Virus record (IMG/VR): IMGVR_UViG_2541047758_000018
Length of the DNA: 34,871 nt
Origin: a virus
Taxonomy: Duplodnaviria; Heunggongvirae; Uroviricota; Caudoviricetes
Reading direction: 5' to 3' (one strand)
The position numbers and the translations under genes were made by a program. Under the pieces are notes generated by a model that worked only from the letters and a program-made list of their open reading frames with translations, did not search any database and was not told where the DNA came from. This document shows, piece after piece, positions 6,765 to 30,034 of this stretch (position 1 is the first letter of the stretch; the number at the start of each line of letters is the position of its first letter).

Positions 6765-7128
6765 AAATGCAGAAATGGCGCTTAGCTCCGCAATCGGAGA
6801 GCAGGTGGCAAAGATTGCTGGTGCTGTGTGGATTCATAACCTTCATTCTACTGGTGAAGAGAAAATGGCAATTCAGACGCCAGAGGGACGCACCATTACT
6901 ACATCTCTGAAGCCGTCAGATGTTTGTGATCTGATTTGCGCATTCATGTACCCAGCAATGAGGACTGTCCACGGCGATAAGTGGAAACTTGCGACAACCG
7001 CTGAATTTGATATGTGGCTAAACAATGATGGCATGCTGACTGATTACGGAATAACCAAGTGGCAGATGCTGGTTAGCCATATCGCAAACGCTATAGACCA
7101 CGTGGGGTACGGTGATGCGAAACATTGA
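6757..7128 (+). CDS. Hypothetical protein (123 aa)
   Basis: Overlaps the upstream gene by 8 nt and the primase gene by 17 nt, typical phage-like coupling. Confidence 0.5.
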   Translation: MRENAEMALSSAIGEQVAKIAGAVWIHNLHSTGEEKMAIQTPEGRTITTSLKPSDVCDLICAFMYPAMRTVHGDKWKLATTAEFDMWLNNDGMLTDYGITKWQMLVSHIANAIDHVGYGDAKH

Positions 7129-9871
7129 TCTTATCCGTCAGGTTATCAGTGCGTCTGAAAACAACTGGCCTCATGTGCTGGGCTGCCTGAACATAAATGT
7201 CCCTGACTCTCCGCGCCGTCATGCTCCCTGCCCTGCATGTGGGGGCAAAGATCGATTCCGATTCGACGACAACGGGCGCGGTAGCTTCATCTGTAATCAG
7301 TGCGGCGCTGGTGATGGGCTGGATTTAATTAAACGCGTAAATAACTGCGACACAACAGAGGCGGCGTTGCTTGCCGCTGATGTTCTGGGTATTGATTACC
7401 GGACAACGGAAACACCAGAAGCCACCAGCCAGAAACGGGAACAACTGGAAACCGAGCGCCAGCGACGCGAACAGGAGCGCCTGAAAAGGGCAGAGAAGGA
7501 CGAACAACAAAGACGGGATACGTTTTCCCGTCAGTTTGATGACATGCGCAGAAAGGCTGTAAACGGCAAATCTGATTATCTGGTTGCGAAAGGGGTAGGT
7601 GATTTTACATTCCCCGTGTTGCCCGATGGATCTCTGTTGCTGGCGCTGGTGGATAAATCCGGCGCAGTCACAGCAGCACAGACTATTACCTCACATGGTG
7701 AAAAAAGACTCCTGACAGGTTCAGCAAAGCGAGGGGCATATCACGCCATAAACGCACCAGAAACAACACAGAGCATCTTAATCGCAGAAGGGCTGGCAAC
7801 GGCATTATCTGCCCATTTAATTCGTCCAGAGGCGCTGACAGTGGCGGCGATTGATGCCGGGAACCTGTTATATGTCGCCCAGGTACTGCGGGATAAATTT
7901 CCTTCAGCACAAATCATCATTGCTGCGGATAACGACCACAGCGAAGGAAGACAAAACACGGGGAGAATAGCAGCAGAAAAAGCAGCTTTATCTGTTTCTG
8001 GATGGGTGGCATTACCCCCGACAGATCACAAAGCAGACTGGAATGATTACCACCAAAAACACGGCATTAAATGCGCCACAGAAGCGTTCAATAAGTCAAT
8101 GTACCAACCACAGGGTAATGGCGTGAAACAGGAGCCACAGACCATTGAGGGAAGCGATTTTAAGGTTATGGATACCGACCCACTGAAACCAAGAATAGAA
8201 AGCCGCGAGGATGGTATTTATTGGGTATCTCCGAGAGCTGACAGCCAGAGTGGAGAAATCATCAATAACGAAAGCTGGTTATGTTCTCCGTTAAGCGTTA
8301 TCGGTACTGGCAGAGACGATAAAGACCAGTATCTCATTCTTCGCTGGCTGTCGTTTGGTTCTGAAACGCCGACAACCGCTGCCATTCCACTGGCTGATAT
8401 TGGTGAACGTGAAGGATGGCGCACACTTAAAGCTGGTGGGGTAAATGTCACGACCAAAAGCAGCCTCAGAGCAATACTGGCAGACTGGCTACAACGCAGT
8501 GGCTCTCGTGAATTGTGGCGTGTTGCTCATGCCACTGGCTGGCAATGCGGAGCGTACATCATGCCTGATGGGGAAATCATCGGAACACCTGAAAATCCTG
8601 TGCTGTTCAGCGGGAGAAGCTCAGCCGCAGCCGGATATACCGTCTCAGGGAGCGCGAAAAGCTGGCGTGATAACGTGGCGCGTCTGGCCTTTGGTAACTA
8701 TTCAATGATGACCGGGATCGGCGCAGCACTGGCAGCGCCATTGATTGGGCTGGTGGGCGCTGACGGGTTCGGCATTCATTTCTATGAGCAGTCGAGCGCA
8801 GGTAAGACCACCACGGCAAACGTGGCGAGCAGCTTATACGGCAACCCTGATTTACTGCGGCTGACGTGGTACGGAACCGCGCTGGGGCTGGCAAATGAAG
8901 CTGCCGCCCACAATGACGGACTAATGCCGCTTGATGAAGTTGGTCAGGGCGCTGATCCTGTCAGTGTTTCACAGTCTGCCTATGCGTTATTTAACGGTGT
9001 AGGGAAACTGCAAGGCGCTAAAGATGGTGGAAACCGGGATCTAAAACGCTGGCGTACAGTGGCAATCAGCACCGGAGAAATGGATTTAGAAACATTTATC
9101 GCTACTTCCGGGCGAAAAACCAAAGCCGGGCAACTGGTGCGACTGCTGAATATTCCGTTGAGTAAAGCAGTACGCTTTCACGATTACCAGAACGGAAAAC
9201 AGCACGCAGACGCACTGAAAGACGCTTACCAGCATCACCACGGCGCGTCCGGGCGTGAGTGGATTAAATGGCTGGCAGACCACCAGCAACAGGCTATTAA
9301 AACTGTTCGTGATTGCGAAAGCAGATGGAGAAGCCTGATCCCATCCGATTATGGTGAGCAGGTTCACCGTGTAGCCGCGCGATTTGCCATTCTGGAGGCC
9401 GCATTGTTGTTAGGCGAGGTTGTAACAGGCTGGGATGCTCAGACATGCCGTGATGCGATACAGCACAGCTATAACGCATGGTTGCGCGAGTTCGGCACAG
9501 GTAACAAAGAGCATCAGCAGATTATTGAACAAACGGAGGCATTTCTTAATGCCTATGGGCTTAGCCGTTTTGCACCATTTCCATACAGCCCGGCAGATTT
9601 GCCCATCAAAGATTTAGCCGGATACCGTCAGCGTGGAGAACATGACGAAAGTCCAATGATTTTCTACACATTCCCGGCCACATTTGAAAAGGAGATCGCA
9701 TGTGGTTTCAACGCAAAACAGTTTGCTGAAGTGTTGAAAAAAGCCGGGATGCTAACCCCACCAAACAGCGGTCGTGGATACCAAAGAAAATCACCACGTA
9801 TTCAGGGACGACAAATAAACGTTTATGTACTCAATTACCAGCCAGGAGATTACAACTCATCTGAAGAATGA
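7112..9871 (+). CDS. P4 alpha-like primase-helicase (Zn-ribbon + TOPRIM primase + C-terminal NTPase domain), 919 aa
   Basis: Zinc-ribbon motif PCPACGGKDRFRFDDNGRGSFICNQCGAGDGLDLI; TOPRIM-like acidic motifs ILIAEGLATAL and IIIAADNDHSEG; C-terminal region with Walker-A-like YEQSSAGKTT. Confidence 0.9.
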   Translation: MMRNIDLIRQVISASENNWPHVLGCLNINVPDSPRRHAPCPACGGKDRFRFDDNGRGSFICNQCGAGDGLDLIKRVNNCDTTEAALLAADVLGIDYRTTETPEATSQKREQLETERQRREQERLKRAEKDEQQRRDTFSRQFDDMRRKAVNGKSDYLVAKGVGDFTFPVLPDGSLLLALVDKSGAVTAAQTITSHGEKRLLTGSAKRGAYHAINAPETTQSILIAEGLATALSAHLIRPEALTVAAIDAGNLLYVAQVLRDKFPSAQIIIAADNDHSEGRQNTGRIAAEKAALSVSGWVALPPTDHKADWNDYHQKHGIKCATEAFNKSMYQPQGNGVKQEPQTIEGSDFKVMDTDPLKPRIESREDGIYWVSPRADSQSGEIINNESWLCSPLSVIGTGRDDKDQYLILRWLSFGSETPTTAAIPLADIGEREGWRTLKAGGVNVTTKSSLRAILADWLQRSGSRELWRVAHATGWQCGAYIMPDGEIIGTPENPVLFSGRSSAAAGYTVSGSAKSWRDNVARLAFGNYSMMTGIGAALAAPLIGLVGADGFGIHFYEQSSAGKTTTANVASSLYGNPDLLRLTWYGTALGLANEAAAHNDGLMPLDEVGQGADPVSVSQSAYALFNGVGKLQGAKDGGNRDLKRWRTVAISTGEMDLETFIATSGRKTKAGQLVRLLNIPLSKAVRFHDYQNGKQHADALKDAYQHHHGASGREWIKWLADHQQQAIKTVRDCESRWRSLIPSDYGEQVHRVAARFAILEAALLLGEVVTGWDAQTCRDAIQHSYNAWLREFGTGNKEHQQIIEQTEAFLNAYGLSRFAPFPYSPADLPIKDLAGYRQRGEHDESPMIFYTFPATFEKEIACGFNAKQFAEVLKKAGMLTPPNSGRGYQRKSPRIQGRQINVYVLNYQPGDYNSSEE

Positions 9872-10634: not shown

Positions 10635-11096
10635 ATGGAACTAAAATTTATTGATAACCCTGTGCGATTACAGGCCTTTCTTAACGAGCCAGGCAATACC
10701 GAAAATATTGTTGAGCCGGGGCACACGTACTACATCAAGCCTGATGCGGTATATCTCGGCATCTACGAAGGATTAGTGCTGGCTGGCGTTCATGAAGTGC
10801 GTAACTTCTGGCATAGCGTTGTTGAATGCCATGCGGTGTACGACCCCGGATTCCGTGGTGAATATGCACTGCAAGGGCATCGATTATTCTGCAAATGGCT
10901 TCTCGAAAACTCACCATTCCTTAACAGCATCACTATGGTTCCTGACACCACGAAATACGGACGGGCAATTATCCGTTTGCTTGGCGCTACCCGTGTTGGT
11001 CACCTTGATGATGCTTATATCAGATGTGGTAAACCCGTCGGCGTAACGCTTTATCAGTTAACTCGGCAACAATATAAGGAATTCAGCGAATGTTAA
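10635..11096 (+). CDS. Hypothetical phage-like protein (153 aa), first large gene of ejection-protein-like operon
   Basis: ORF 16 nt downstream of the small regulator-like ORF; no motif recognised; position is analogous to P22 gp14 or T7 gp13 ahead of the ejection proteins. Confidence 0.5.
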   Translation: MELKFIDNPVRLQAFLNEPGNTENIVEPGHTYYIKPDAVYLGIYEGLVLAGVHEVRNFWHSVVECHAVYDPGFRGEYALQGHRLFCKWLLENSPFLNSITMVPDTTKYGRAIIRLLGATRVGHLDDAYIRCGKPVGVTLYQLTRQQYKEFSEC

Positions 11097-11767
11097 TTAC
11101 CCATATAGCTCATAAACATCTCAATCGTGCCGTATACGAAAAAGGCGGTGATGGTGGTGCCTCTAAAGCTCAGGCGAAGGCCCAGCAGCAGGCAATTGAT
11201 TTGCAGCGCGAGCAGTGGAATACGGTGATGAATAATCTCAAGCCGTATGCAGAAGTCGGATTGCCTGCTTTACAACAACTGCAAGGACTGATGACTCTGG
11301 AAGGGCAGAATAAAGCCGCGAATGATTTCTTTGGTTCTGGTTTATATAAAACACAGGCAGATCAGGCCCGTTATCAGAACCTTGTCTCAGCAGAAGCTAC
11401 CGGGGGGCTTGGCTCAACAGCTACCAGTAACCAGTTATCTTCCATTGCGCCCATGCTTTATAACAATTGGCTCAGTGGGCAAATGCAAAATTATGGAAAC
11501 CTGCTAAATGTCGGGATGAATGCGGCATCAGGGCAGGCAACGGCAGGGCAAAACTACGCCAATAATACCGGACAACTCTTGCAGGGGCTTGGCGCTATTC
11601 GTGCAGGTCAGGCGCAGCAGCCATCCAGTCTTGCGCGTGGTATTGGTGGGGCAGCATCAGGCGCTTTAGCGGGTGCGCAACTTGGTTCCGTTGTTCCTGG
11701 AATAGGAACTGCGGCCGGCGCTATTGGTGGTGGGCTTATTGGTCTTGTTGGGGGGCTTGGATTCTAA
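11090..11767 (+). CDS. Glycine-rich protein (225 aa) with hydrophobic Gly/Ala C-terminal tail; podovirus ejection/internal-virion-protein-like
   Basis: C-terminus GIGGAASGALAGAQLGSVVPGIGTAAGAIGGGLIGLVGGLGF is membrane-insertion-like; Q/N-rich body; operon-coupled to neighbours. Confidence 0.5.
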   Translation: MLITHIAHKHLNRAVYEKGGDGGASKAQAKAQQQAIDLQREQWNTVMNNLKPYAEVGLPALQQLQGLMTLEGQNKAANDFFGSGLYKTQADQARYQNLVSAEATGGLGSTATSNQLSSIAPMLYNNWLSGQMQNYGNLLNVGMNAASGQATAGQNYANNTGQLLQGLGAIRAGQAQQPSSLARGIGGAASGALAGAQLGSVVPGIGTAAGAIGGGLIGLVGGLGF

Positions 11768-13086
11768 TGGCGACATGGCAACTTGGCGGGCTGCCTAGCA
11801 TGGCACCGCAAAATGATAATGCTCCTCGTTCTTCCGTTCCTCAGCCTGTGCAGTATCAGCAGCAGCCAAACGTAGGTTTAATGGCGCTACAGGGGCTAAG
11901 AGGCGTTGCTGAGATTAATCAGCAGGCGCAAATTTCCCAGCAGTTAAAAGAATATCAGGCACGGTTGGGTAGTGCGGTAGCTAATAATGATCGTGTTGGC
12001 GTGCAGAAGTTAATGGCCCAGTATCCCCAGTTTATGGCTGATTCTCAAAAACAGATGGGATTCATTGATGCTGAGCAAAATCGACAGACCGCTGACGCTG
12101 CCATGAATCTGCGTCTTGCGTCACAAACTGGAGATCCACTGACCATGCAGAAGGCCATTCAGCAGGCAAATCCAGTATTACAGCGATTTGGTCTTCCTGC
12201 TGAAGAGGTTTATCAGTCTTGGCAGAATGACCCACAGGAATTCAACAGAATCACTGACCTCATCCACCTCCATGCTGATCCAAATAGTTACTTTAGTGTT
12301 CAAGAGAAGCAGCAAGGGCAGAGCATTGCACAGCAGAACGCAGATACATCCGCATATAATGCTCAGGTTAATGCGGAACAGGGTAATCGACGTCTCGATA
12401 TGGAGCAGTTCAAAGTCCTATCCGATAACCAACTACGCACGAGAGAAATGGTTCTGAAAGCACGACTTGGACGTGCTCAAAATGACATCGAGAGAGACAA
12501 GCTCAATGCTGAACTGAGCAAGGTACAGCAGGCGAAAGTGGAGAAGATGAACGATAAAATTAATACTGTTGCAGGTAACATCGACTCCTTGAACTCTGCG
12601 CTTGAAGTGGGTCATGAACTGGCGGGAATTGTAGGGAAACATCCTTCGGCCGTTACCCGCTCGCAGAACTATAACCCCCTGACGCTGGGGTTTGGATTCC
12701 TTCCTGATGTAGCAGAAGACACACGAAGCCTACGCGCCAAAGCTGATGAATACAACCTAAAGGTTATTCTGCCTAGCCTCAAAGGGACTTTTGGCTCTAA
12801 CCCAACCGAAGGGGAAAGGGCTGCCCTTATGCAATCTCAAAATGGCATTAAGTCAGCAACCAGCAATGAGGCATTTTTGCGAGAGTTGAATAAAGCGCAG
12901 GACGTAATTATTCGAATGCAGAAACGACAGATTGCCGGGCTCGGTATTCCTGTAACCAAATCTAAGGACGAAGAAACTGATACCAAAATGCTGTTGCAGG
13001 ATCCTTCACTAGTTAAGGATTATGTGACCGCACATGGCTATCTGCCGGAAAGTTACTATCAGGCAAAACTTAAGGGATGGCAATGA
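11767..13086 (+). CDS. Gln-rich coiled-coil-like protein (439 aa); ejection/internal-virion-protein-like
   Basis: ATG overlaps the upstream stop (TAATGG); composition and size resemble the middle ejection protein of podoviruses (P22 gp20 / T7 gp15 class). Confidence 0.5.
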   Translation: MATWQLGGLPSMAPQNDNAPRSSVPQPVQYQQQPNVGLMALQGLRGVAEINQQAQISQQLKEYQARLGSAVANNDRVGVQKLMAQYPQFMADSQKQMGFIDAEQNRQTADAAMNLRLASQTGDPLTMQKAIQQANPVLQRFGLPAEEVYQSWQNDPQEFNRITDLIHLHADPNSYFSVQEKQQGQSIAQQNADTSAYNAQVNAEQGNRRLDMEQFKVLSDNQLRTREMVLKARLGRAQNDIERDKLNAELSKVQQAKVEKMNDKINTVAGNIDSLNSALEVGHELAGIVGKHPSAVTRSQNYNPLTLGFGFLPDVAEDTRSLRAKADEYNLKVILPSLKGTFGSNPTEGERAALMQSQNGIKSATSNEAFLRELNKAQDVIIRMQKRQIAGLGIPVTKSKDEETDTKMLLQDPSLVKDYVTAHGYLPESYYQAKLKGWQ

Positions 13087-15414
13087 TGGCACAACTGACA
13101 GAAAAACAGAAAGCCTATTCCCGTCATCTCGATGAAAAATATGGTTTCCCATCAGGGACGATGGAAACATTAGTTGGCAATGAATCTAGTGGTAACGGAA
13201 GTGCCGAGTCACCGAAAGGAGCTAGAGGATTTGCTCAACTGATGCCCTCAGTAATGAGTGATGCTGGTTATCGTGGAACAGATCCGCGCTCACTGCCATT
13301 TGAAAAGCAAATGGATATCGCAGCAAACCATCTCAATAAAGGAATGAAGCGATTTGGTGATATAGGTATGGCATTGGCTGGGTATAATTCTGGCTATGCT
13401 CGTATTAATGCCGTCAGAAACGGTAAATCTACACTGCCAGATGAAACGGCTAATTACGTAAGTAAATTTGCAGATGCTGGAATAATCCCTGATGACAGTG
13501 AAATCTTGCAGTTTGCACAAACCAGTCAACATCGCAATCTTCAGCAGCCTGACTACTCAGAGCTTGATAAAGAAATCTCTCAGGTGGGAGATATTTCTGC
13601 ATGGGAAGCAAAACGTCAGCAATTTAAGAACATAGAAGCAGGACTACCAACAGCCAGTTCATGGGAGCAGAAAAGAGCTCAGTTTCTCGCCGATGAAAAT
13701 GCCGGGGAACCGCAGCAGCAAGTAGCCAAGTCTAACCTTAATCCTGAGATGGAATATCTTTCGCCAGGACTGAAAGCTGCGCCAGAGCAGATGGCCAGAG
13801 GGATTGCTAATATACCGTTTGATGTAATGGACGCAGGCGTGGGGGTAGTCAATGCGGCGCAATCAGCCGGAGCATGGGCAGCTCAGAAGCTTGGTGTGGG
13901 TGATGGCACATACACGCCCATATCACCTGTCTTTCGCCCAGTAGACCAACCTACAGATCCATACGCGCAGGCTGGTGAGCAGCTAGCACCTTACCTTATT
14001 ACAGGATTAGGTGCAGGAAAGGCAGCTACCGCAGCTTCTTCAGTTGCCAACGCTCCACGTGCTGAACGTGCGGCCACAAAGGTGGCTAGTATGTTGGCAG
14101 AAAACCTGCCAGGTACATTGGTGAACGCCCAAAAGAACGGGCAGATCAGCCCAGAAGACCTAGCAAAAGAGACAGGTATTGGCCTAGCAGGATCGCTAGG
14201 AGCACGCGCTTTAATAAAGAGCGGACAGACAGCCAGTGACGTAATGCGAGATGTATTGCGGAGTAATACAAATCAATCAGGCCATGTGTTAGGGGCAGCA
14301 AATACTCTGGAAACCGCCAATGATGTATCGAAAGCAGCGCGTTCTGCCGTAGGCCGAGAGCATATCGCATCGCAGGCATCAAACGTCAGAGATGATGTCG
14401 CTAAGGCGGCGAAAATCACTGGTATTAATATCAACACCCTGACGCCTGGAATGCGCTCAGGTAGTCGTGGAATTGCCCAAGCAGAAGGTGTTCTGGCATC
14501 AACTCCTGGGAATGTTCAGGATGCTCACCTTACGGCCTTCAATGAAATATCCTCAAAGTTGAATAAGCAGTTGTCTGATTTCGGTGCTGAGTCTGGAAGC
14601 GCATCAGAAAAAAGCGCAGCAATTAAAGAGCGCATCATCGCGAGCCTCAGTGATATGAAAACAGCAGAGAATATGGCATGGGCAGAACTGCGAAGCACGA
14701 TGCCACGCGAAAGGATGAAAATGAGTAATGGGATGGCTGTCGTCCAAGCAGAAAAAGCAGCCAATGTTCCACTCAGCCCGGAGATGAAACAGTTTCAGGC
14801 TGCCAACAACCAAGGTGGCGGCATAACCTTCGACGGGATGAAGGCATGGCGTGCTAAGTTTGCTGATGCTGAACAAGCAAACACCCGGGCAGGTAAGGCC
14901 AATGCCGCCCGGATTGCCGGAGAAATGCGCAGAGCTATCACTGATGACATGCGCATCATGGCTGAAAAAGGAAACTTCCTCACAGAATGGCAGAAAGCTA
15001 ACGATCTCTCTAAAAGTTACATTATCGCCAAACAAAATGCCGAATCTGTTTTTGGTCGAGATCTCGCATCAGACGCTATGGTAAGAAAAGGTGCCGATAC
15101 GCTTAAGGCATCCGCAAACACTGGAACGGGAGCTTTTCACCGTCTTATCTCCGCGCTGCCGGAAGCAGAACGCCAACCTGCAATAGCATCTATTCTTCAG
15201 CATGCTGTGGCGCAGGGAGAGAAGGGAGGAATCGGTGAAGAGTCAGGTATCCAGTATTTTGCCAAGCTCATGACCCAGCAGAATGTAAACGCCATCAGTC
15301 GTCATGCGCCAGATCTCGGTAGAATGATGAAAGAGTTCGGTGTACTCGCTAAAGCCAGTACCAGACCGCAGCGATACGTAGAGCGCACGGGAAGAACAAC
15401 TGAGGCTCTCAAAA
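13077..15414 (+). pseudogene. Phage internal-virion/ejection-type protein with N-terminal lytic transglycosylase (SLT) domain, 3'-truncated by IS911-like insertion (native part about 779 codons)
   Basis: SLT signature ESSGNGSAESPKGARGFAQLMP ... ALAGYNSGY near the N-terminus. The ORF reads through the IS end at 15415 and terminates inside the IS at 15569, so the last 51 codons are IS-derived. Confidence 0.7.
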
Positions 15415-15444
15415 TGAAGTGGTCAACAAAAACTGGCCACCGAG

Positions 15445-16628
<1,184 letters not shown>

Positions 16629-23595: not shown

Positions 23596-24849
23596 TTACT
23601 TCAGACAGTGAGTTTCCCATTCCTTGACTGCAAATGTATCCATCATACCTGAAATATAGTCAACCACTGCTCGTTTTTTGCTGATTTTAAATATATAGGA
23701 ATCTGGTTGGGGTAAGGTGAATTTAAGTTCAGGAGGCAGAAATTTATAATTCTCTCCTTCATTGTAAAAGTCATATAAATCCCTGATTATTTTATTTCCC
23801 CTGAACTCATAGGTGAGGATATTACGTTTTCGCATGATGACTTTAAAGAGAAGTTTTTTGAGCCCTTCGGATAACGCATTCAGTTTCCCGAATCCCAGTT
23901 CCTGAAAACCATTCAGGTTCGTTACTACAGAAATATCTGCAACGAGGCGATTGACAATATTTGAAGTTAACTCCTTGCGGAATATGATGGCAAATTCTTC
24001 TGAGGTTTTCAGTAAGTTAGCCTGAAAAGCGGTGTTTCTCGACTGAGTAACGATTTCCCTGAACTGTTCCCTCGCTCCCCGGAATTCGTCAGAAATCTGA
24101 AACTCATATTCAATATCTTCAATCGTGACCATGTTCCTGCTAAGGGCATCTTCCAGGTCATGCGCGGCATAGGCAATCTCATCCGCGAGATCCATTATCT
24201 GCGCATCAATCGTTTTCTCTCCGGGATTCAGATCGAGCTGATTTTCAGCAAGCAGGTTAATGTAAAAATAGTAATCATCATCATAAATGAACTTGCCGGC
24301 AGTAGCTGCAGCGCGGGGGATGGGATACTTAACAACCGAAAGTAAACTACGGTGAGTCAGATTTAATCCGTTGCAGTATGAAAATTTCTTCTCCAGTTTT
24401 CTCAGGATACGTAGCGCCTGTGCATTGCCTTCATAGCCGCCGATTTCTTCAGACAGTTCATTAAGCAGTTTTTCACCGGAATGACCGAAAGGAGGATTTC
24501 CGATGTCATGCGCCAGCGCTGCCAGTTCAACCACCACCGGGTTAACCAGTTTGAGGTCTGACGCGATACTTCGGGCGATCTGAGCAACCTCAAGACTGTG
24601 CGTTAATCTGTTTCTGTTGAATTTTTCAGGATCAATTTCAAAAAGTTGCATCTTTCCCTGCAGCCTGCGAAATGATGATGAATACAGAATACGCGCATAA
24701 TCCCGTTGATAATTATCCCGGCTTCTTGTTTCACCATCGGGGGACGGGTGCTCTCTGGTATCAGCAAGCGCACTGATAAGTTTTTGTTCCTGCTCTTGCG
24801 CAAATTCTTTTAATTCATTGCAGTACATATTTCTTCCTTTCTGGAGCAT
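23596..24849 (-). CDS. dGTP triphosphohydrolase-family HD-domain protein (short form, 417 aa) - probable antiphage dNTP-depleting dGTPase
   Basis: Aligns by eye to E. coli Dgt motifs: FRRLQGKMQLF (IRRLQQKTQVF), RLTHSLEVAQIARSIA, LAHDIGNPPFGHSGE, YEGNAQALRIL, MDLADEIAYAAHDLEDA, DYISGMMDTFA; shorter than housekeeping Dgt (505 aa). Confidence 0.85.
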   Translation of the reverse strand: MLQKGRNMYCNELKEFAQEQEQKLISALADTREHPSPDGETRSRDNYQRDYARILYSSSFRRLQGKMQLFEIDPEKFNRNRLTHSLEVAQIARSIASDLKLVNPVVVELAALAHDIGNPPFGHSGEKLLNELSEEIGGYEGNAQALRILRKLEKKFSYCNGLNLTHRSLLSVVKYPIPRAAATAGKFIYDDDYYFYINLLAENQLDLNPGEKTIDAQIMDLADEIAYAAHDLEDALSRNMVTIEDIEYEFQISDEFRGAREQFREIVTQSRNTAFQANLLKTSEEFAIIFRKELTSNIVNRLVADISVVTNLNGFQELGFGKLNALSEGLKKLLFKVIMRKRNILTYEFRGNKIIRDLYDFYNEGENYKFLPPELKFTLPQPDSYIFKISKKRAVVDYISGMMDTFAVKEWETHCLK

Positions 24850-24978: not shown

Positions 24979-25845
24979 CTAAGTGAGGTTCTGGTTTTCA
25001 AATTGTTCCGGACTGAGGCCGCCACACCAACTGTGCCGCCGCCACCGATTGTAATCACATTCGATATAATTAAACACCGTTGCCCGCATTATTTCCCGGC
25101 TGATAAAGTGTTCTCCATGGATACATTCCACTTTCAGCGAATGAAAGAAGCTTTCCACGCAGGCATTATCGTAGCAGCAACCTTTTGCGCTCATACTTCC
25201 ACGCAGATTATGCCGCTTCAGTTGCGCCTGATAATCTGCTGAACAGTACTGGCCTCCACGGTCCGTGTGAACGATAACGTTCCGGGGCCTCTTACGCCGC
25301 CACAGCGCCATCTGCAGGGCATCGCAGGCCAGTTGCGCCGTCATGCGTGGCGACATTGACCAGCCAATAACGGCACGTGACCACAGGTCAATGACCACTG
25401 CCAGATACAGCCAGCCTTCATCTGTACGTAAGTACGTGATGTCTCCTGCCCACTTCTGGTTCGGGCCACTGGCGTAAAAATCCTGCTCCAACAGATTTTC
25501 TGACACAGGCAGGCCGTGTGCGCGGTAGCTGACCGGGCTGAACTTCCGGGAGGCCTTTGCCCTCAGTCCCTGACGGCGCAGGCTTGCCGCCACGGTTTTT
25601 ACGTTAAAGGGGTAACCCTGAGCACGCAGTTCATCCGTCAGGCGTGGGGCACCGTAACGCTGTTTTGACCGGGTAAAAGCCGCGAGGACAACGCTGTCGC
25701 AGTGTTGGCGGAACTGCTGACGCGTGCTTATCCTTGTCCGCCGCTGACACCACGTATACCAGCCGCTGCGGGCCACCCGGAGCACGCGGCACATTGCTTT
25801 GATGCTGAACTCAGCCTGATGTTTTTCAATAAAGACATACTTCAT
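24979..25845 (-). CDS. insF: IS3 transposase OrfB (InsF)
   Basis: [32 protein letters not shown] ... [34 protein letters not shown] ... HTDRGGQY is the IS3 InsF sequence as I recall it. Confidence 0.9.
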
Positions 25846-26150
25846 TTCAGGCGCTTCGCGAAGTATGTCGCGGCCTTTTGGAGGATAGCCAGCTCTTCAT
25901 CCCGTTCTGCCAGCTGGCGTTTGAGACGTGCAATCTCGGTAGACATCTCCAGTTCACGTTCAGAAGACGTCTGCTGATTTTGCTGTTTACTGCGCCAGTT
26001 GTAGAGTTGTGATTCATACAGGCTGAGTTCACGGGCTGCGGCAGTAACACCGATGCGTTCAGCAAGCTTCAGGGCTTCACTGCGAAATTCAGGCGAATGC
26101 TGTTTACGGGGTTTTTTACTGGTTGATACTGTTTTTGTCATGTGAGTCAC
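25842..26150 (-). CDS. insE: IS3 transposase OrfA (InsE)
   Basis: [52 protein letters not shown]...; start may be the internal ATG (MTKTV). Confidence 0.9.
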
Positions 26151-26297
26151 CTCTGACTGAGAGTTTACTCACTTAGCCGCGTGTCCACTATTGCTGGGTA
26201 AGATCACCCTGTGAACCATGTTGATATTGATACTATATTGACTATATGCCATACAGGTGGTAATGATTAGTTACTACCATACAGGAAAAGGTAGAAA

Positions 26298-27278
26298 ATG
26301 ACTCTTTTGGTAACGGCTGAGTGTGTTGACGATCTGATAAACGATGTTCATCAAGCTATCCTAGCGGATGGACTCAGTAACGATCCTACAAAAGGATCAA
26401 CTCTAGAGATTCTTGGTGCCTATCTTGTCCTTACCGACCCCCGCCGAAGAATAAGTAGAACAGAATCCCGAGGAAAACTAATTAGTTGCTTAGGTGAATT
26501 TCTGTGGTATCTCTCAGCTCAGAACGATCTTGAGTTTATAAAACACTTCATACCACGTTACGCTGAATCCGCTGAGTCAGATGGGAAAATACATGGTGGT
26601 TACGGGCCACGGTTGTTTAATATGCGTGGTTTATATAATCAGCTAAAAAATGTCATCAACCTTTTGCAGGAGAAAAAACCTACCAGACGTGCAGTAATAC
26701 AGCTTTTCGATGCCTCAGACTTGGTGCCCTCAAAAACTGAACAGCGAGAATACGTAGATATTCCTTGTACAATATCTATGCAGTTTATTGTCAGATGTGA
26801 AGAGCTGCATCTATTTGTTTGTATGCGTTCTAACGATGCCTTTATGGGGCTGCCTCATGATGTATTTGCGTTCACGATGCTACAGGAATTAGTTGCCCGC
26901 TTGATAGGATGCGAATTGGGTCACTATCATCACTTTGTATCCAGCCTACATCTCTATAAAAATGATTTAGAAAAAGTGAAGGCTCTTCAGAAAGAGGGGT
27001 TCATGAGCACCCTACCAGTCATGGGATCGATGCCTGAAATGCATTCCTTAGATGATATCTTACCCCTGCTTGAGGCAGAAAAAGCTCTTCGAGAGAATAA
27101 GGAATTTGATATTGACACTACTTCCTTGAATGACTACTGGAAGGATTTATTGCGTATATTAAAAATCCACTTTTTGTTACGTTCACATACACCCAACCAC
27201 AAAGGACTAGCCTTCCAAGAGTTGGCTGCAATGAAAAATCAGGAATATCGGTTTATTTTTGAAGGAAGACTACAATGA
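26298..27278 (+). CDS. Thymidylate-synthase-fold pyrimidine C5-modifying enzyme (ThyA / dCMP-hydroxymethylase-like), 326 aa
   Basis: Aligns by eye to E. coli ThyA: LISCLGEFLWYL (IIHELLWFL), RRAVIQLFD (RRIIVSAWN), nucleophile Cys in IPCTISMQF (APCHAFFQF), MRSNDAFMGLPHD (QRSCDVFLGLPFN), HLY (THLY). The specificity Asn is replaced by Asp, as in dCMP hydroxymethylase. Confidence 0.8.
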   Translation: MTLLVTAECVDDLINDVHQAILADGLSNDPTKGSTLEILGAYLVLTDPRRRISRTESRGKLISCLGEFLWYLSAQNDLEFIKHFIPRYAESAESDGKIHGGYGPRLFNMRGLYNQLKNVINLLQEKKPTRRAVIQLFDASDLVPSKTEQREYVDIPCTISMQFIVRCEELHLFVCMRSNDAFMGLPHDVFAFTMLQELVARLIGCELGHYHHFVSSLHLYKNDLEKVKALQKEGFMSTLPVMGSMPEMHSLDDILPLLEAEKALRENKEFDIDTTSLNDYWKDLLRILKIHFLLRSHTPNHKGLAFQELAAMKNQEYRFIFEGRLQ

Positions 27279-28219
27279 AAAGACATAATCAAATCAGTCA
27301 GCTGGTTAGTAATTTGCAAAATTTTAGCCGCAATGAACACAACCTAAATGGTCTAAGTTCTCCTGCCTGCTTTGATGTTTTAGCCTGTCAGATTATCGAC
27401 AGTATACGTCGTATACGCTATGTGGAAACTCTTGCATTACGGACCGATTATATGACTCCGTTACGAAAAGAGCCGAATTCTGATGTTTTTGATCCTCTCC
27501 GCGCTGCCTGCCTTTATCTTCGTGACAACAATTACGATGAAGCCTGCTGGCTGGTTTTCCTTGCCACACATTTCGGCAAGAGTAACAAAACCGGCTGGAT
27601 TTTGTGTCGAGATATATACAGTGGACTCGGTACACAAACGTGGACATGGGATACGATAACTGATGACTTTGCTGCTTTTGAACAATGGTTCGCCAGCGTC
27701 TCTGATGAGTTGACAGCTAACAGTAGCCTAAGACAATATGGTAACCATCGGAAATATGAAACGAAGAAATATCACTCTCGTCGTTCAATACCTGCGGTTT
27801 TTCGCTCTTACATCGGATTCATTGGTGCTACACACAGTCATGAGGCTAGGTTTGCAGAGGCCAAGAGCTTTTCATCTTCACCAGAATCTTTATTCGAACT
27901 ATTGTATTCAGGGCTAAATGCCGTGATCTCATTTGGACGAACCGCAAAATTTGATTACCTAACTATGCTCAAGAAAACGGGACTTCTGGATGTAGAGCCG
28001 GGTCATGCTTTTCTGAATGGAGCAACCGGGCCCCTTCAAGGAAGCCGGCTACTTTTCAGCAATAGCCGGACTGCTGGTGACACAATAGACGTATTGAATG
28101 AAAAACTAGCTGACCTTGCGGCAATTATTCCTGCACCCTACTTGAGAATGCAGGTTATTGAAGATGCGTTGTGCAACTGGCAGAAATCACCTGACCGTTA
28201 TGTCTATTTCGGCGGCTGA
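27275..28219 (+). CDS. Hypothetical protein (314 aa), translationally coupled partner of the ThyA-like enzyme; function unknown
   Basis: ATG overlaps the ThyA-like stop (ATGA at 27275-27278); no motif I can assign with confidence. Confidence 0.6.
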   Translation: MKRHNQISQLVSNLQNFSRNEHNLNGLSSPACFDVLACQIIDSIRRIRYVETLALRTDYMTPLRKEPNSDVFDPLRAACLYLRDNNYDEACWLVFLATHFGKSNKTGWILCRDIYSGLGTQTWTWDTITDDFAAFEQWFASVSDELTANSSLRQYGNHRKYETKKYHSRRSIPAVFRSYIGFIGATHSHEARFAEAKSFSSSPESLFELLYSGLNAVISFGRTAKFDYLTMLKKTGLLDVEPGHAFLNGATGPLQGSRLLFSNSRTAGDTIDVLNEKLADLAAIIPAPYLRMQVIEDALCNWQKSPDRYVYFGG

Positions 28220-28221
28220 TA

Positions 28222-29304
28222 TCAGACGATATCTTCTTTACGGAATCTCACTTTAAACCGATTAAGGTGAGAAAAAGGTATATTACCTTCATGCTGCAAA
28301 TATCCCAGTACGATCCCTTTGGATACCCCCATTTTCCTAGCTAACCGGATGATCTCTTTCCAATGCCGGACACCATAGCGACTAAGTTGCTGCCGGTATT
28401 CTTCTGGGATAAGAACATCAACGGCAAATTTATCTGCTTCCTTTTCCTCTTCCGACGAAAGACTATCTTTACCTTCTACGCGAACTCGGACAGCTTCATG
28501 CAAGATGAGATGCCCAATCTCATGAAACAGCGTAAACCAAAAATGGTCATCGGTCAGATAACGGAAACTCATGACTAGGGTTGCGCGATCTGGTGTAAAA
28601 AAGCAGGTAGCACCACTTGCCCGACATCCCTTTGGCGTTGGCAACACAACGAGAGAAACTCCAGCAGTGGCGAGAAGGTCGCGAATGTAAGGGATAAAAA
28701 TCCTCATGTCGGGTTCATTTGTAGCTTTGCGCAGTTCTGGCAACAATGCTATCAGCACCTCTTTATCCCATACAGCACAGTTTTGGTTTGAGGTAAGTTG
28801 TGCAGCCCTAGTCAGCCACACCAAATCGGCCATAGGCTCGGTTGCCAGATTAAGAGATTTACGAAAAGCGACCAAAGGAGCATCTGACTGAATTTTATAA
28901 AAAAAATCATTGACGGAATTTATTCCGAAAAACGATAGGCAGTGCTGGAATTTACTTTCCCGAGTTGTAGTTTTGGGGATCCAACCAAACTCCATCATAT
29001 CACGTACAGGCAATGATTCGAGCCAATCATTATTCACTTTCTCGAGGTATCCAATTTGCTGGCGATAAGCGACTTCGCGCTTGATCCAGAAGTCTGTCGA
29101 TACGTTGAATAACTCCTCAAGCTTACAAGCCAGAGACTCATTGAGTCGGATTTTTCCTTCAAGAAGTTGCTGACCCCGGATAAGAGACAATCCAATCCTC
29201 TTACTCAGTTCTTCACCAGAAAGCCCATGTTCATCCATTAGATCTATAATTGTATCACCGGGTGGAGATACCCAGTCAGGCTGGAAGTCCTGCGTAACTA
29301 TCAT
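28222..29304 (-). CDS. HTH (XRE-type) + ImmA/IrrE-family zinc metallopeptidase fusion protein (360 aa)
   Basis: N-terminal HTH GDTIIDLMDEHGLSGEELSKRIGLS; C-terminal HExxH motif FHEIGHLILHE with downstream EKEAD, typical of the ImmA/IrrE (COG2856) peptidase domain. Confidence 0.75.
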   Translation of the reverse strand: MIVTQDFQPDWVSPPGDTIIDLMDEHGLSGEELSKRIGLSLIRGQQLLEGKIRLNESLACKLEELFNVSTDFWIKREVAYRQQIGYLEKVNNDWLESLPVRDMMEFGWIPKTTTRESKFQHCLSFFGINSVNDFFYKIQSDAPLVAFRKSLNLATEPMADLVWLTRAAQLTSNQNCAVWDKEVLIALLPELRKATNEPDMRIFIPYIRDLLATAGVSLVVLPTPKGCRASGATCFFTPDRATLVMSFRYLTDDHFWFTLFHEIGHLILHEAVRVRVEGKDSLSSEEEKEADKFAVDVLIPEEYRQQLSRYGVRHWKEIIRLARKMGVSKGIVLGYLQHEGNIPFSHLNRFKVRFRKEDIV

Positions 29305-29627
29305 TTCACGTCACCTATGAACACTAACCGTATCCGGCTAACTCGGGACCAGTTAATTGTATTATCTTGATTTTTGGGCTGAACTGTATTCCCACAGACA
29401 AATCCCATTTTTACATCACCGAGAATGGTAATTGTAATACACTCTTCCCCATCCTCAAAGCAGACCTCCGGCGAACCTACGGGCAACAGTAATATGTTGT
29501 CTGTCACGGAAAGATCGGAAAGTCGCGAGCGTAGTCTTGATGCCACTTTGTCACCAAAGATCTCATTTGCCTCATGCATACTCTCGCAAATAGTCCTTAA
29601 CTTCTTGCTTTGAAAGGTAATGAACAA
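29301..29627 (-). CDS. Small protein (108 aa) overlapping the start of the HTH-peptidase gene; possible toxin-like partner (RelE/HigB-like?), unverified
   Basis: 4-nt overlap with the downstream HTH-peptidase gene implies co-translation; weak resemblance to killer-protein N-termini (MFITFQSKKLRTI...); family call is a guess. Confidence 0.35.
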   Translation of the reverse strand: MFITFQSKKLRTICESMHEANEIFGDKVASRLRSRLSDLSVTDNILLLPVGSPEVCFEDGEECITITILGDVKMGFVCGNTVQPKNQDNTINWSRVSRIRLVFIGDVK

Positions 29628-29728: not shown

Positions 29729-30034
29729 ATGTTAATGATGGACTTAAAATCACGGATTCGTAAGGGAAACATGAAAGGTAAACATCAAGACACTAAAGCC
29801 CTGTCTGACGTGCTAGCGGAAATGCAACGGCAGGATGCCAAATGGGGGGCAGACCGTAATCAAGATCCTTTTATCTGGGGAGCGATTCTCGGAGAAGAGG
29901 TGGGAGAATTTCATCAGGCTGTCCTCCATGATCGTTTTGGTGGTAAAGCAGCCGGTACCAGTAGGGAGGAAGCAGTACAAATTGCTGCTGTTGCACTGCA
30001 AATCATCGAATATTATGATCGCGTAATAGATTGA
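29729..30034 (+). CDS. Small all-alpha protein, possibly MazG-like nucleotide pyrophosphohydrolase (101 aa; true start may be internal at 29771)
   Basis: ILGEEVGEFHQAV (E-E-x-x-E motif) and REEAVQIAAVALQIIEY resemble the MazG/NTP-PPase metal-binding helices. Confidence 0.35.
   Translation: MLMMDLKSRIRKGNMKGKHQDTKALSDVLAEMQRQDAKWGADRNQDPFIWGAILGEEVGEFHQAVLHDRFGGKAAGTSREEAVQIAAVALQIIEYYDRVID

Follow-up and report, generated by a model that had tools for sequence, protein, structure and literature searches.

We describe a four-gene cassette of 3.4 kb in a 34,871-nucleotide stretch of DNA catalogued as viral (IMG/VR record IMGVR_UViG_2541047758_000018; the whole stretch is hereafter called the window, and positions are counted from its first letter), and propose that it encodes an inducible conflict system that writes or exploits a C5-modified cytosine, by hypermodification or by poisoning of DNA. 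The cassette comprises a gene for a protein of the thymidylate synthase fold (TS; 26298-27278, forward strand, 326 aa), a partner gene (27275-28219, forward strand, 314 aa), a gene for a fusion of an Xre-type helix-turn-helix (HTH) domain to an M78/ImmA-IrrE metallopeptidase (Xre-peptidase; 28222-29304, reverse strand) and a putatively HigB-like open reading frame (ORF) of 108 aa (29301-29627, reverse strand). We put the probability of this proposal at roughly 0.5; the system would probably be anti-phage and of the abortive-infection type, with the HigB-like/Xre-peptidase pair as its sensor, regulator or killer.

The ThyA-fold protein is a predicted dCMP hydroxymethylase

The TS protein (WP_000174035.1) bears the RefSeq product name 'thymidylate synthase' and matches the Pfam family Thymidylat_synt (PF00303; E=5.3e-25), with the motifs TRRAV at residue 129, DIPCT at 154-158, MRSND at 176-180, GLPHD at 184-188 and HLY at 218-220. 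Its scores against the NCBIfam ThyA equivalog models were 30-81 bits against cutoffs of 108-576, the best being 81 bits against a cutoff of 327. The best solved relative is MilA, matched over residues 26-304 with the C-terminal helical extension included (E=1.6e-41), and the best match to a true ThyA has E=1.4e-18.

We aligned the protein residue by residue to MilA and to a ThyA; diagnostic positions are given here in Escherichia coli ThyA numbering. Cys157 corresponds to Cys146, Asp188 to the specificity residue Asn177, Asp154 to Leu143 and Thr158 to His147, whilst Asp180 corresponds to Asp169, which is retained. Amongst 68 family members extracted from related loci, Cys157, Thr158, Arg177, Ser178, Asn179, Asp180, Asp188, His218 and Tyr220 do not vary; residue 154 is acidic (Asp or Glu) in 62 members, and 65 have Arg130. 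A preliminary description of this DNA, made without database searches, had claimed a ThyA fold with these motifs and a cytosine-type Asp at the specificity position, and both claims are borne out.

Published rules give these positions a meaning. Replacement of Asn177 by Asp indicates a cytosine substrate, replacement of Leu143 by Asp or Glu a hydroxymethyl rather than a methyl product, and replacement of Asp169 by Asn the flavin-dependent 5-hydroxy-dCMP synthases (PMC13326640), where dCMP is deoxycytidine monophosphate. Arg and Ser in place of Lys133 and Ala176 of MilA indicate a deoxyribo- rather than a ribonucleotide (PMC5175136). Read by these rules, the TS signature of Asp188, an acidic residue 154, Asp180 and Arg130/Ser178 is that of a dCMP hydroxymethylase, being of the cytosine, hydroxymethyl and 2'-deoxy type, and the predicted reaction is the conversion of dCMP to 5-hydroxymethyl-dCMP, placing the protein with the pyrimidine C5 hydroxymethylases MilA and T4 gp42. 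A 5-hydroxy-dCMP synthase of the RB69 gp48 type was rejected because Asp180 is kept where that class has Asn, and the CMP (ribonucleotide) specificity of MilA is disfavoured by Arg130 and Ser178.

The partner belongs to the aGPT-Pplase3/AADT family

The preliminary description had found no recognizable domain in the partner protein (WP_000820616.1), a view overturned by profile searches. The protein matches Pfam PF18746 (aGPT-Pplase3) over its full length (E=4.8e-90; 302 bits against a cutoff of 25), as well as PF18724 (ADDT, 'amino acid:DNA transferase'; E=9e-59; 199 bits against a cutoff of 26), and its newer RefSeq name is 'alpha-glutamyl/putrescinyl thymine pyrophosphorylase clade 3 protein'. 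By these profile matches the partner is a clade-3 homologue of the aGPT-Pplases, or amino-acid:DNA transferases (AADTs). The aGPT-Pplase clades were reportedly first described by Iyer et al. in 2013.

The family holds ~3,900 clusters at 90% identity, and its length is uniform at ~311-317 aa. The fold of the partner is all-helical, with two helical bundles, resembles that of the helix-hairpin-helix (HhH) glycosylases and is nearest to that of gp46/PUGT of phage PaMx11; the segment FGRTAKF, which links helix 203-216 to helix 222-234, has the look of an HhH hairpin. Invariant motifs of the family are GNHRKYE, FGRTAKFDYLTM, ATGP and Q293-x-x-E296-D297-x-x-C300-N-W-Q-K304, and Cys300 and Glu296 are invariant in 24 family sequences. 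A weak profile alignment to gp46 (E=0.046) sets MQVIEDALCNWQK on IQEVETILCKWKS, and pairs Cys300 with the catalytic Cys247 and Glu296 with Glu243, marking Cys300 and Glu296 as candidate catalytic residues.

The characterized members of clade 2 are M6 gp51, ViI gp247 and PaMx11 gp46/PUGT (PMC8989533, PMC11472151). These enzymes flip 5-phosphomethyl-deoxyuridine out of DNA, attack C6 through a Cys and expel the phosphate, leaving an exocyclic methylene to which an amino acid is added; the Cys and the Glu have been shown to be essential (PMC8989533, PMC11472151). Neither a 5-hydroxymethyldeoxyuridine (5-hmdU) DNA kinase nor an HMUDK_hel protein was found in the window or in the conserved cassette.

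The convergent gene pair resembles PD-lambda-2

The Xre-peptidase protein, which carries the Pfam domains HTH_3 and Peptidase_M78, matches the PADLOC model PD-Lambda-2_B over residues 15-341 (3.3e-30). Residues H261, E262, H265 and H269 of its HExxH...H motif are invariant in 71 Xre-peptidase sequences. PD-lambda-2 is a validated three-gene, toxin-antitoxin (TA)-like abortive-infection system (Vassallo et al. 2022; PMC9519451). Its component A is HigB-like, component B, in which Xre and peptidase are fused, is toxic by itself and rescued by A, and component C is related to the P4 antitoxin and needed for defence (PMC9519451).

The stop of the 108-aa ORF overlaps the start of the Xre-peptidase gene. 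The ORF gave no match in Pfam, PADLOC (including PD-Lambda-2_A) or the PDB, and its family profile found none in the PDB either; in NCBI records its homologues are called 'killer suppression protein HigA'. Because no hidden Markov model or PDB entry matched, the HigB-like label rests on position, the NCBI naming and the analogy to PD-lambda-2, and we treat the ORF as a putative counterpart of component A. PADLOC models matched none of the TS, partner, 108-aa ORF or MazG-like proteins, the last being the product of a neighbouring gene described below.

Four genes are conserved together in cellular genomes

A scan of one genome per species yielded 327 relatives, and 79 loci were examined. The loci span at least nine phyla: Proteobacteria, Acidobacteriota, Bacteroidota, Verrucomicrobiota, Planctomycetota, Chloroflexota, Actinomycetota, Myxococcota and Saccharibacteria. 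A TS-like gene lies immediately 5' of the partner gene, on the same strand, in 73 of the 79, and five of the six loci lacking one are contig ends. The sixth, in Chryseolinea serpens (L063:10001-12310), lacks a TS-like gene within 10 kb although partner, Xre-peptidase and small ORF are all present, and is the only TS-less locus with full flanks.

A full-length homologue of the Xre-peptidase (30-50% identity) is encoded convergently 3' of the partner in 76/79 loci, usually 8-60 nt from the partner stop. Directly 5' of the peptidase gene, 68 loci have a small ORF whose N-terminal motif is conserved; tblastn detects the ORF in 34 loci. Judged by this conservation, the functional unit is one of four genes (TS, partner, Xre-peptidase and HigB-like ORF), and the earlier framing of the locus as a two-gene pair has to be widened. 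The preliminary description had listed an IS3 element, an HTH-ImmA gene, a dGTPase gene, a MazG-like gene and a type I restriction-modification (R-M) gene as flanking features; all are present, with the correction that the HTH-ImmA gene is a conserved part of the unit and not a neighbour of it.

The partner clade was not detected by tblastn in 50,697 phage genomes (0 matches) and had no meaningful PHROG match, and amongst 72,556 plasmids tblastn found only 10 matches, five of them in conjugative plasmids. By these searches the clade is cellular, residing in genomes and plasmids, and not phage-borne.

The wider surroundings are less constant. A gene for a MazG-like protein occupies the same position in all seven enterobacterial loci and is found in none of the other loci examined. 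No dGTPase homologue turned up in the 79 related loci, and proximity to a dGTPase and a type I R-M system, which the preliminary description had taken as meaningful context, is a trait of the E. coli island rather than of the cassette family. In Vibrio cholerae the cassette adjoins a variable region that includes genes for HipA, R-M and SMC-like proteins, and an alphaproteobacterial cassette adjoins IS1. At about 50 diverse loci the longest flanking ORFs were mostly housekeeping genes, with defence or recombinase genes a minority, in a sample that had no background control and was biased by the choice of the longest ORF. Of the two questions posed for a neighbourhood survey, the first is answered by the conservation of the pair as a unit; on enrichment beside defence genes, the flanks speak strongly neither for nor against. 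Taken across loci, the setting is that of a compact mobile insert. One cassette, in Enterobacter hormaechei (L010:6595-10474), is decayed: a transposase gene stands between TS and a partner cut down to residues 157-314.

In ~24 loci (~30% of cassettes) an additional gene of ~265 aa, here called gene X, lies between the TS and partner genes. No Pfam or PHROG family covers it, although ~2,500 clusters exist, and its family profile matched no PDB sequence. We identify gene X as a new member of the uracil-DNA glycosylase (UDG) superfamily, and its place in the operon suggests that excision of a marked base may occur as well. The presence in one operon of another enzyme that flips DNA bases speaks for action on DNA rather than for a mechanism confined to the nucleotide pool.

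Organization and genomic setting of the cassette

The ORF list confirms the overlap claimed earlier: the TS and partner ORFs share the four bases ATGA, and the two genes form one operon. A consensus scan placed a putative TS promoter, TTGACT-N18-AATGAT, at 26238-26267 on the forward strand. Direct repeats of CCATACAGG at 26249-26257 and 26277-26285 stand on either side of its -10-like hexamer, and could be an operator for the Xre-peptidase. The promoter-like block is also present in IS-free loci of Kluyvera, Enterobacter and Pectobacterium, and the CCATACAGG repeats are conserved, in part only, in Kluyvera and Enterobacter. The IS3 element (24979-26207) lies between the dGTPase gene and the cassette; its end is ~90 bp 5' of the TS start codon and leaves the promoter-like block downstream undamaged. 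The G+C content of the TS/partner region is 0.40-0.45, below that of the adjoining IS3.

The partner and Xre-peptidase genes are convergent, with 2 nt between their stop codons, and a scan between the convergent stops (28219/28222) detected no terminator-like site. Given this gap and the lack of a detected terminator, the two transcripts must overlap, and antisense interference between them is possible.

The MazG-like gene (29729-30034, forward strand) is divergent from the 108-aa ORF. Its product, a small protein named 'MazG-like family protein' in RefSeq, matches PHROG 24212 (function unknown; 4e-37) and has no Pfam match even at E=10. On the far side of the IS3 element, the defence-type dGTPase gene (23596-24849) is intact in the window and matched by PADLOC (1.4e-109), and scores 285 bits against the NCBIfam model 'antiphage_dGTPase', under its cutoff of 400. 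The dGTPase gene of strain 4FM (L001:17300-18531) is frameshifted.

The window is part of the E. coli chromosome. The TS-partner pair (1.9 kb) is present at ≥99% identity in 233 of 5,426 complete E. coli genomes (~4%), always on the chromosome. Its site is an integrative island of the CP4/P4 type, which also carries cbtA/cbeA, radC, an antirestriction gene, the dGTPase gene and the type I R-M system. Elsewhere in the window, the ejection proteins of phage P22 have homologues encoded at positions 11090-15569: gp7, an injectosome translocase, and a protein with an SLT domain. The same element has an integrase gene (1-1260), genes for AntA and Ash and, at 7112-9871, one for a P4-like primase of the DUF927/Toprim kind. 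Ejection genes of P22 together with a P4-like primase are an unusual combination for a satellite-like island.

A proposed mechanism and its alternatives

In the mechanism that we propose, TS would use methylene-tetrahydrofolate to convert dCMP to 5-hydroxymethyl-dCMP, as its active-site signatures suggest. The partner, going by its fold and the conservation of its candidate catalytic residues, would then flip out the base and attack C6 of the 5-hydroxymethyl pyrimidine through Cys300. Its substrate would most probably be a base already incorporated in replicating DNA. With Glu296 acting as the acid, another nucleophile would replace the C5-methylene substituent, and the result would be a cytosine that is hypermodified or crosslinked. 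The HigB-like ORF and the Xre-metallopeptidase would serve as sensor or regulator and as toxic switch, as their relation to components A and B of PD-lambda-2 suggests.

Three observations form what we count as the link of the cassette to defence: the prediction made by DefensePredictor, the validated system DS-4 that is discussed below, and the PD-lambda-2-like gene pair. In the accessible part of the tables of DefensePredictor, a machine-learning screen, this exact TS protein, WP_000174035.1, is a 'predicted novel defense gene' in Table S10, with a mean log-odds of 7.63 (Science 2026, PMC13092281). The partner, the Xre-peptidase (WP_000637420.1) and the MazG-like protein (WP_000676590.1) are not amongst the table entries listed there. 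The defence role raised in the preliminary description is therefore still plausible, whereas the nucleotide-pool depletion that it placed foremost is less well supported than DNA hypermodification, given that the partner is an aGPT-Pplase/AADT homologue.

It is possible to extend the proposal to an immune marking of DNA. On infection the Xre-peptidase would switch the hydroxymethylase on, and 5-hydroxymethylcytosine (5hmC) would enter the DNA that replicates fastest, namely that of the phage. A kinase-independent, AADT-like enzyme would turn the 5hmC directly into a bulky adduct or a protein-DNA crosslink, which the UDG-family protein would excise in many lineages. We advance this extension tentatively, and think it unlikely to hold.

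It should be noted that several observations weigh against an inducible system acting on DNA. Neither a deoxynucleoside monophosphate (dNMP) kinase, which would yield 5-hmdCDP, nor a DNA kinase of the 5-hmdU type is present, so both the incorporation of the modified base and the leaving-group chemistry require assumptions. The Cys/Glu correspondence with gp46 depends on an alignment at E=0.046, and the fold of the partner is also like that of Qng1, an enzyme of free nucleotide. Gene X is missing from the window and from the E. coli cassette. With mostly housekeeping flanks outside the Enterobacteria and Vibrio, the defence-island context is weak. In the accessible part of the DefensePredictor tables, the transcription unit of the cassette is not amongst the 94 tested, and DS-4 is the sole thymidylate-synthase entry of Table S6 (PMC13092281). 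The same study highlights aGPT-Pplase systems as predicted, stating that 'none have been experimentally validated' (PMC13092281), and our literature search found no other experimental work on the cassette.

The missing kinases would be in keeping with a system that acts on the nucleotide pool only, in which TS drains dCMP and deoxycytidine triphosphate (dCTP) to 5-hydroxymethyl-dCMP and the partner cleaves or derivatizes the free nucleotide, leaving the phage starved or poisoned. MilA-MilB, a hydroxymethylase followed by a nucleotide N-glycosidase, offers a precedent; the enterobacterial MazG-like gene could supply dCMP from dCTP; and pool-depleting defences such as dGTPase, one of which lies nearby, are established. 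We nevertheless find this explanation doubtful, as the nearest structural relative of the partner, a transferase that shares its Cys/Glu motif, acts on DNA, the HhH-type hairpin is kept, and the MazG-like gene is limited to one lineage. The UDG-superfamily protein in ~30% of operons points the same way, since the characterized members of its fold all act on DNA. If MilA-MilB is taken as the model in full, the cassette might instead be an antimetabolite pathway, as for mildiomycin (MilA-MilB) or bacimethrin (BcmA-BcmB), that makes free 5-hydroxymethylcytosine or a thiamine antivitamin. MilA is indeed the nearest solved homologue of TS, even in its C-terminal extension, and the fold of the partner is glycosylase-like, but Arg130/Ser178 indicate a 2'-deoxy preference where MilA and BcmA have Lys/Ala, and the Cys/Glu retained in the partner is the C6-attacking pair of the transferases rather than a hydrolase signature. 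With no further biosynthetic, export or resistance genes conserved nearby, an antimetabolite pathway is very improbable.

Homology to phage hypermodification enzymes also fits a constitutive modification of host or mobile-element DNA, in which hypermodified cytosine would be an epigenetic or anti-restriction mark, in the way of thymidine hypermodification in phages, and the Xre-peptidase/HigB module merely a regulator or addiction module. The cassette resides on islands and plasmids, half of the latter conjugative, and a TA-like module could stabilize such an element. Against this, none of the 50,697 phage genomes has the cassette, although selection acts there for protective hypermodification, and no cognate modification-sensitive nuclease travels with the cassette. 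Coupling to a module whose peptidase is toxic in PD-lambda-2 fits inducible suicide or defence better, and a genome carrying 5hmC throughout would lie open to McrBC-type enzymes, which are common in E. coli. We therefore regard self-modification as decidedly unlikely. That TS is an ordinary, redundant thymidylate synthase, a thyA paralogue, is what its RefSeq name and Pfam match would imply, and can be given next to no credence. The NCBIfam scores lie below every equivalog cutoff, the exchanges at Asn177 and His147 are invariant in the family and the Leu143 position is acidic in nearly all members, the gene is accessory in E. coli, and it is always linked to AADT-like and Xre-peptidase genes. 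Folate genes, beside which a housekeeping thyA replacement had been expected in the preliminary description, are not recurrent in the flanks.

Significance

To our knowledge, enzymes of DNA pyrimidine hypermodification have been characterized from phages alone, as protectors of viral DNA, and for no base but thymine. Here, a clade of ~3,900 clusters of hypermodification-type enzymes is confined to cellular genomes, and is paired with a predicted cytosine-type hydroxymethylase and a toxin/antitoxin-like sensor module, modules of this kind being known to bring about abortive infection. If our proposal is true, bacteria would contain a new modified cytosine and a kinase-independent C5-methylene transfer chemistry that might be useful for 5hmC labelling, and the logic of the defence would be that of a host turning the phage's own trick against the phage. 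Should the DNA-marking extension also hold, the cassette would be the first host-encoded pathway of cytosine hypermodification, and the first case of hypermodification chemistry used against phages and not by them. As a 3.4-kb unit carried by ~4% of complete E. coli genomes, it represents a concrete and cheap experimental target, for which informative point mutations have been specified.

Comparison with known systems

MilA, the CMP 5-hydroxymethylase of mildiomycin biosynthesis, and T4 gp42, a dCMP hydroxymethylase, have in common with TS the catalytic Cys, the Asp at Asn177, the acidic residue at the Leu143 position and Asp169. The Lys133/Ala176 of MilA favour ribonucleotides, whereas the TS family has Arg/Ser, as does T4 gp42, favouring deoxyribonucleotides. 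The context of the cassette is unlike that of either enzyme, being neither an antibiotic cluster nor a phage.

The thymidine-hypermodification pathways of phages PaMx11, M6, ViI, SP10 and PhiW-14 combine a dUMP hydroxymethylase, a 5-hmdU DNA kinase and an aGPT-Pplase/AADT of clade 2. The predicted hydroxymethylase of the cassette is of the cytosine type (Asp188), whereas gp51, the dUMP hydroxymethylase of PaMx11, is of the uracil type, with Asn at the specificity position. The cassette also differs in having no P-loop 5-hmdU DNA kinase, no HMUDK_hel and none of the pyridoxal-phosphate, radical S-adenosylmethionine or flavin adenine dinucleotide tailoring enzymes. In addition, its partner clade is absent from phages and locked to the HigB-like/Xre-peptidase pair.

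The preliminary description could name no antiphage system with a ThyA-fold enzyme at its core; DS-4, validated in 2026, is one, and its TS is homologous to that of the window (29% identity, E=1e-28). DS-4 consists of a TS, a dNMP kinase, a 'DNA base hypermodification protein', a Toll/interleukin-1 receptor (TIR) protein and a hypothetical protein, and was validated in E. coli (PMC13092281). Like the cassette, it begins with a divergent ThyA-fold enzyme whose residue at the Leu143 position is acidic; next comes a helical protein of the same Iyer/Aravind hypermodification set, and both systems are found in the E. coli accessory genome. Unlike TS, DS-4A has Asn at the specificity position and is thus of the uracil type, and DS-4 includes a dNMP kinase and a TIR effector, whereas no such kinase and no TIR gene was found in the window. 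The third gene of DS-4 (NZ_QOYB01000018.1, 33739-34761; Table S8) encodes an HMUDK_hel domain (7.7e-53) that stands alone and lacks a P-loop kinase domain. Phage PaMx11 likewise has HMUDK_hel (gp50) as a separate ORF, beside the P-loop kinase gp49. The partner was considered as a relative of DS-4C and rejected, as the two have no pairwise similarity and DS-4C is HMUDK_hel and not aGPT-Pplase3. An Xre-peptidase module is not listed amongst the five genes of DS-4, and DS-4 is validated, whereas the cassette is only predicted. CMoRE (Nat Commun 2026) was also checked and is unrelated.

With PD-lambda-2 the cassette shares a small, putatively HigB-like ORF directly 5' of an Xre-HTH-peptidase fusion gene. 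Component C of PD-lambda-2 is absent from the cassette, and the TS/AADT operon takes the adjoining position, in convergent orientation. The cassette is a computationally flagged, uncharacterized system that appears to combine hypermodification-type chemistry of the phage kind with defence of the TS-containing or PD-lambda-2-like kinds.

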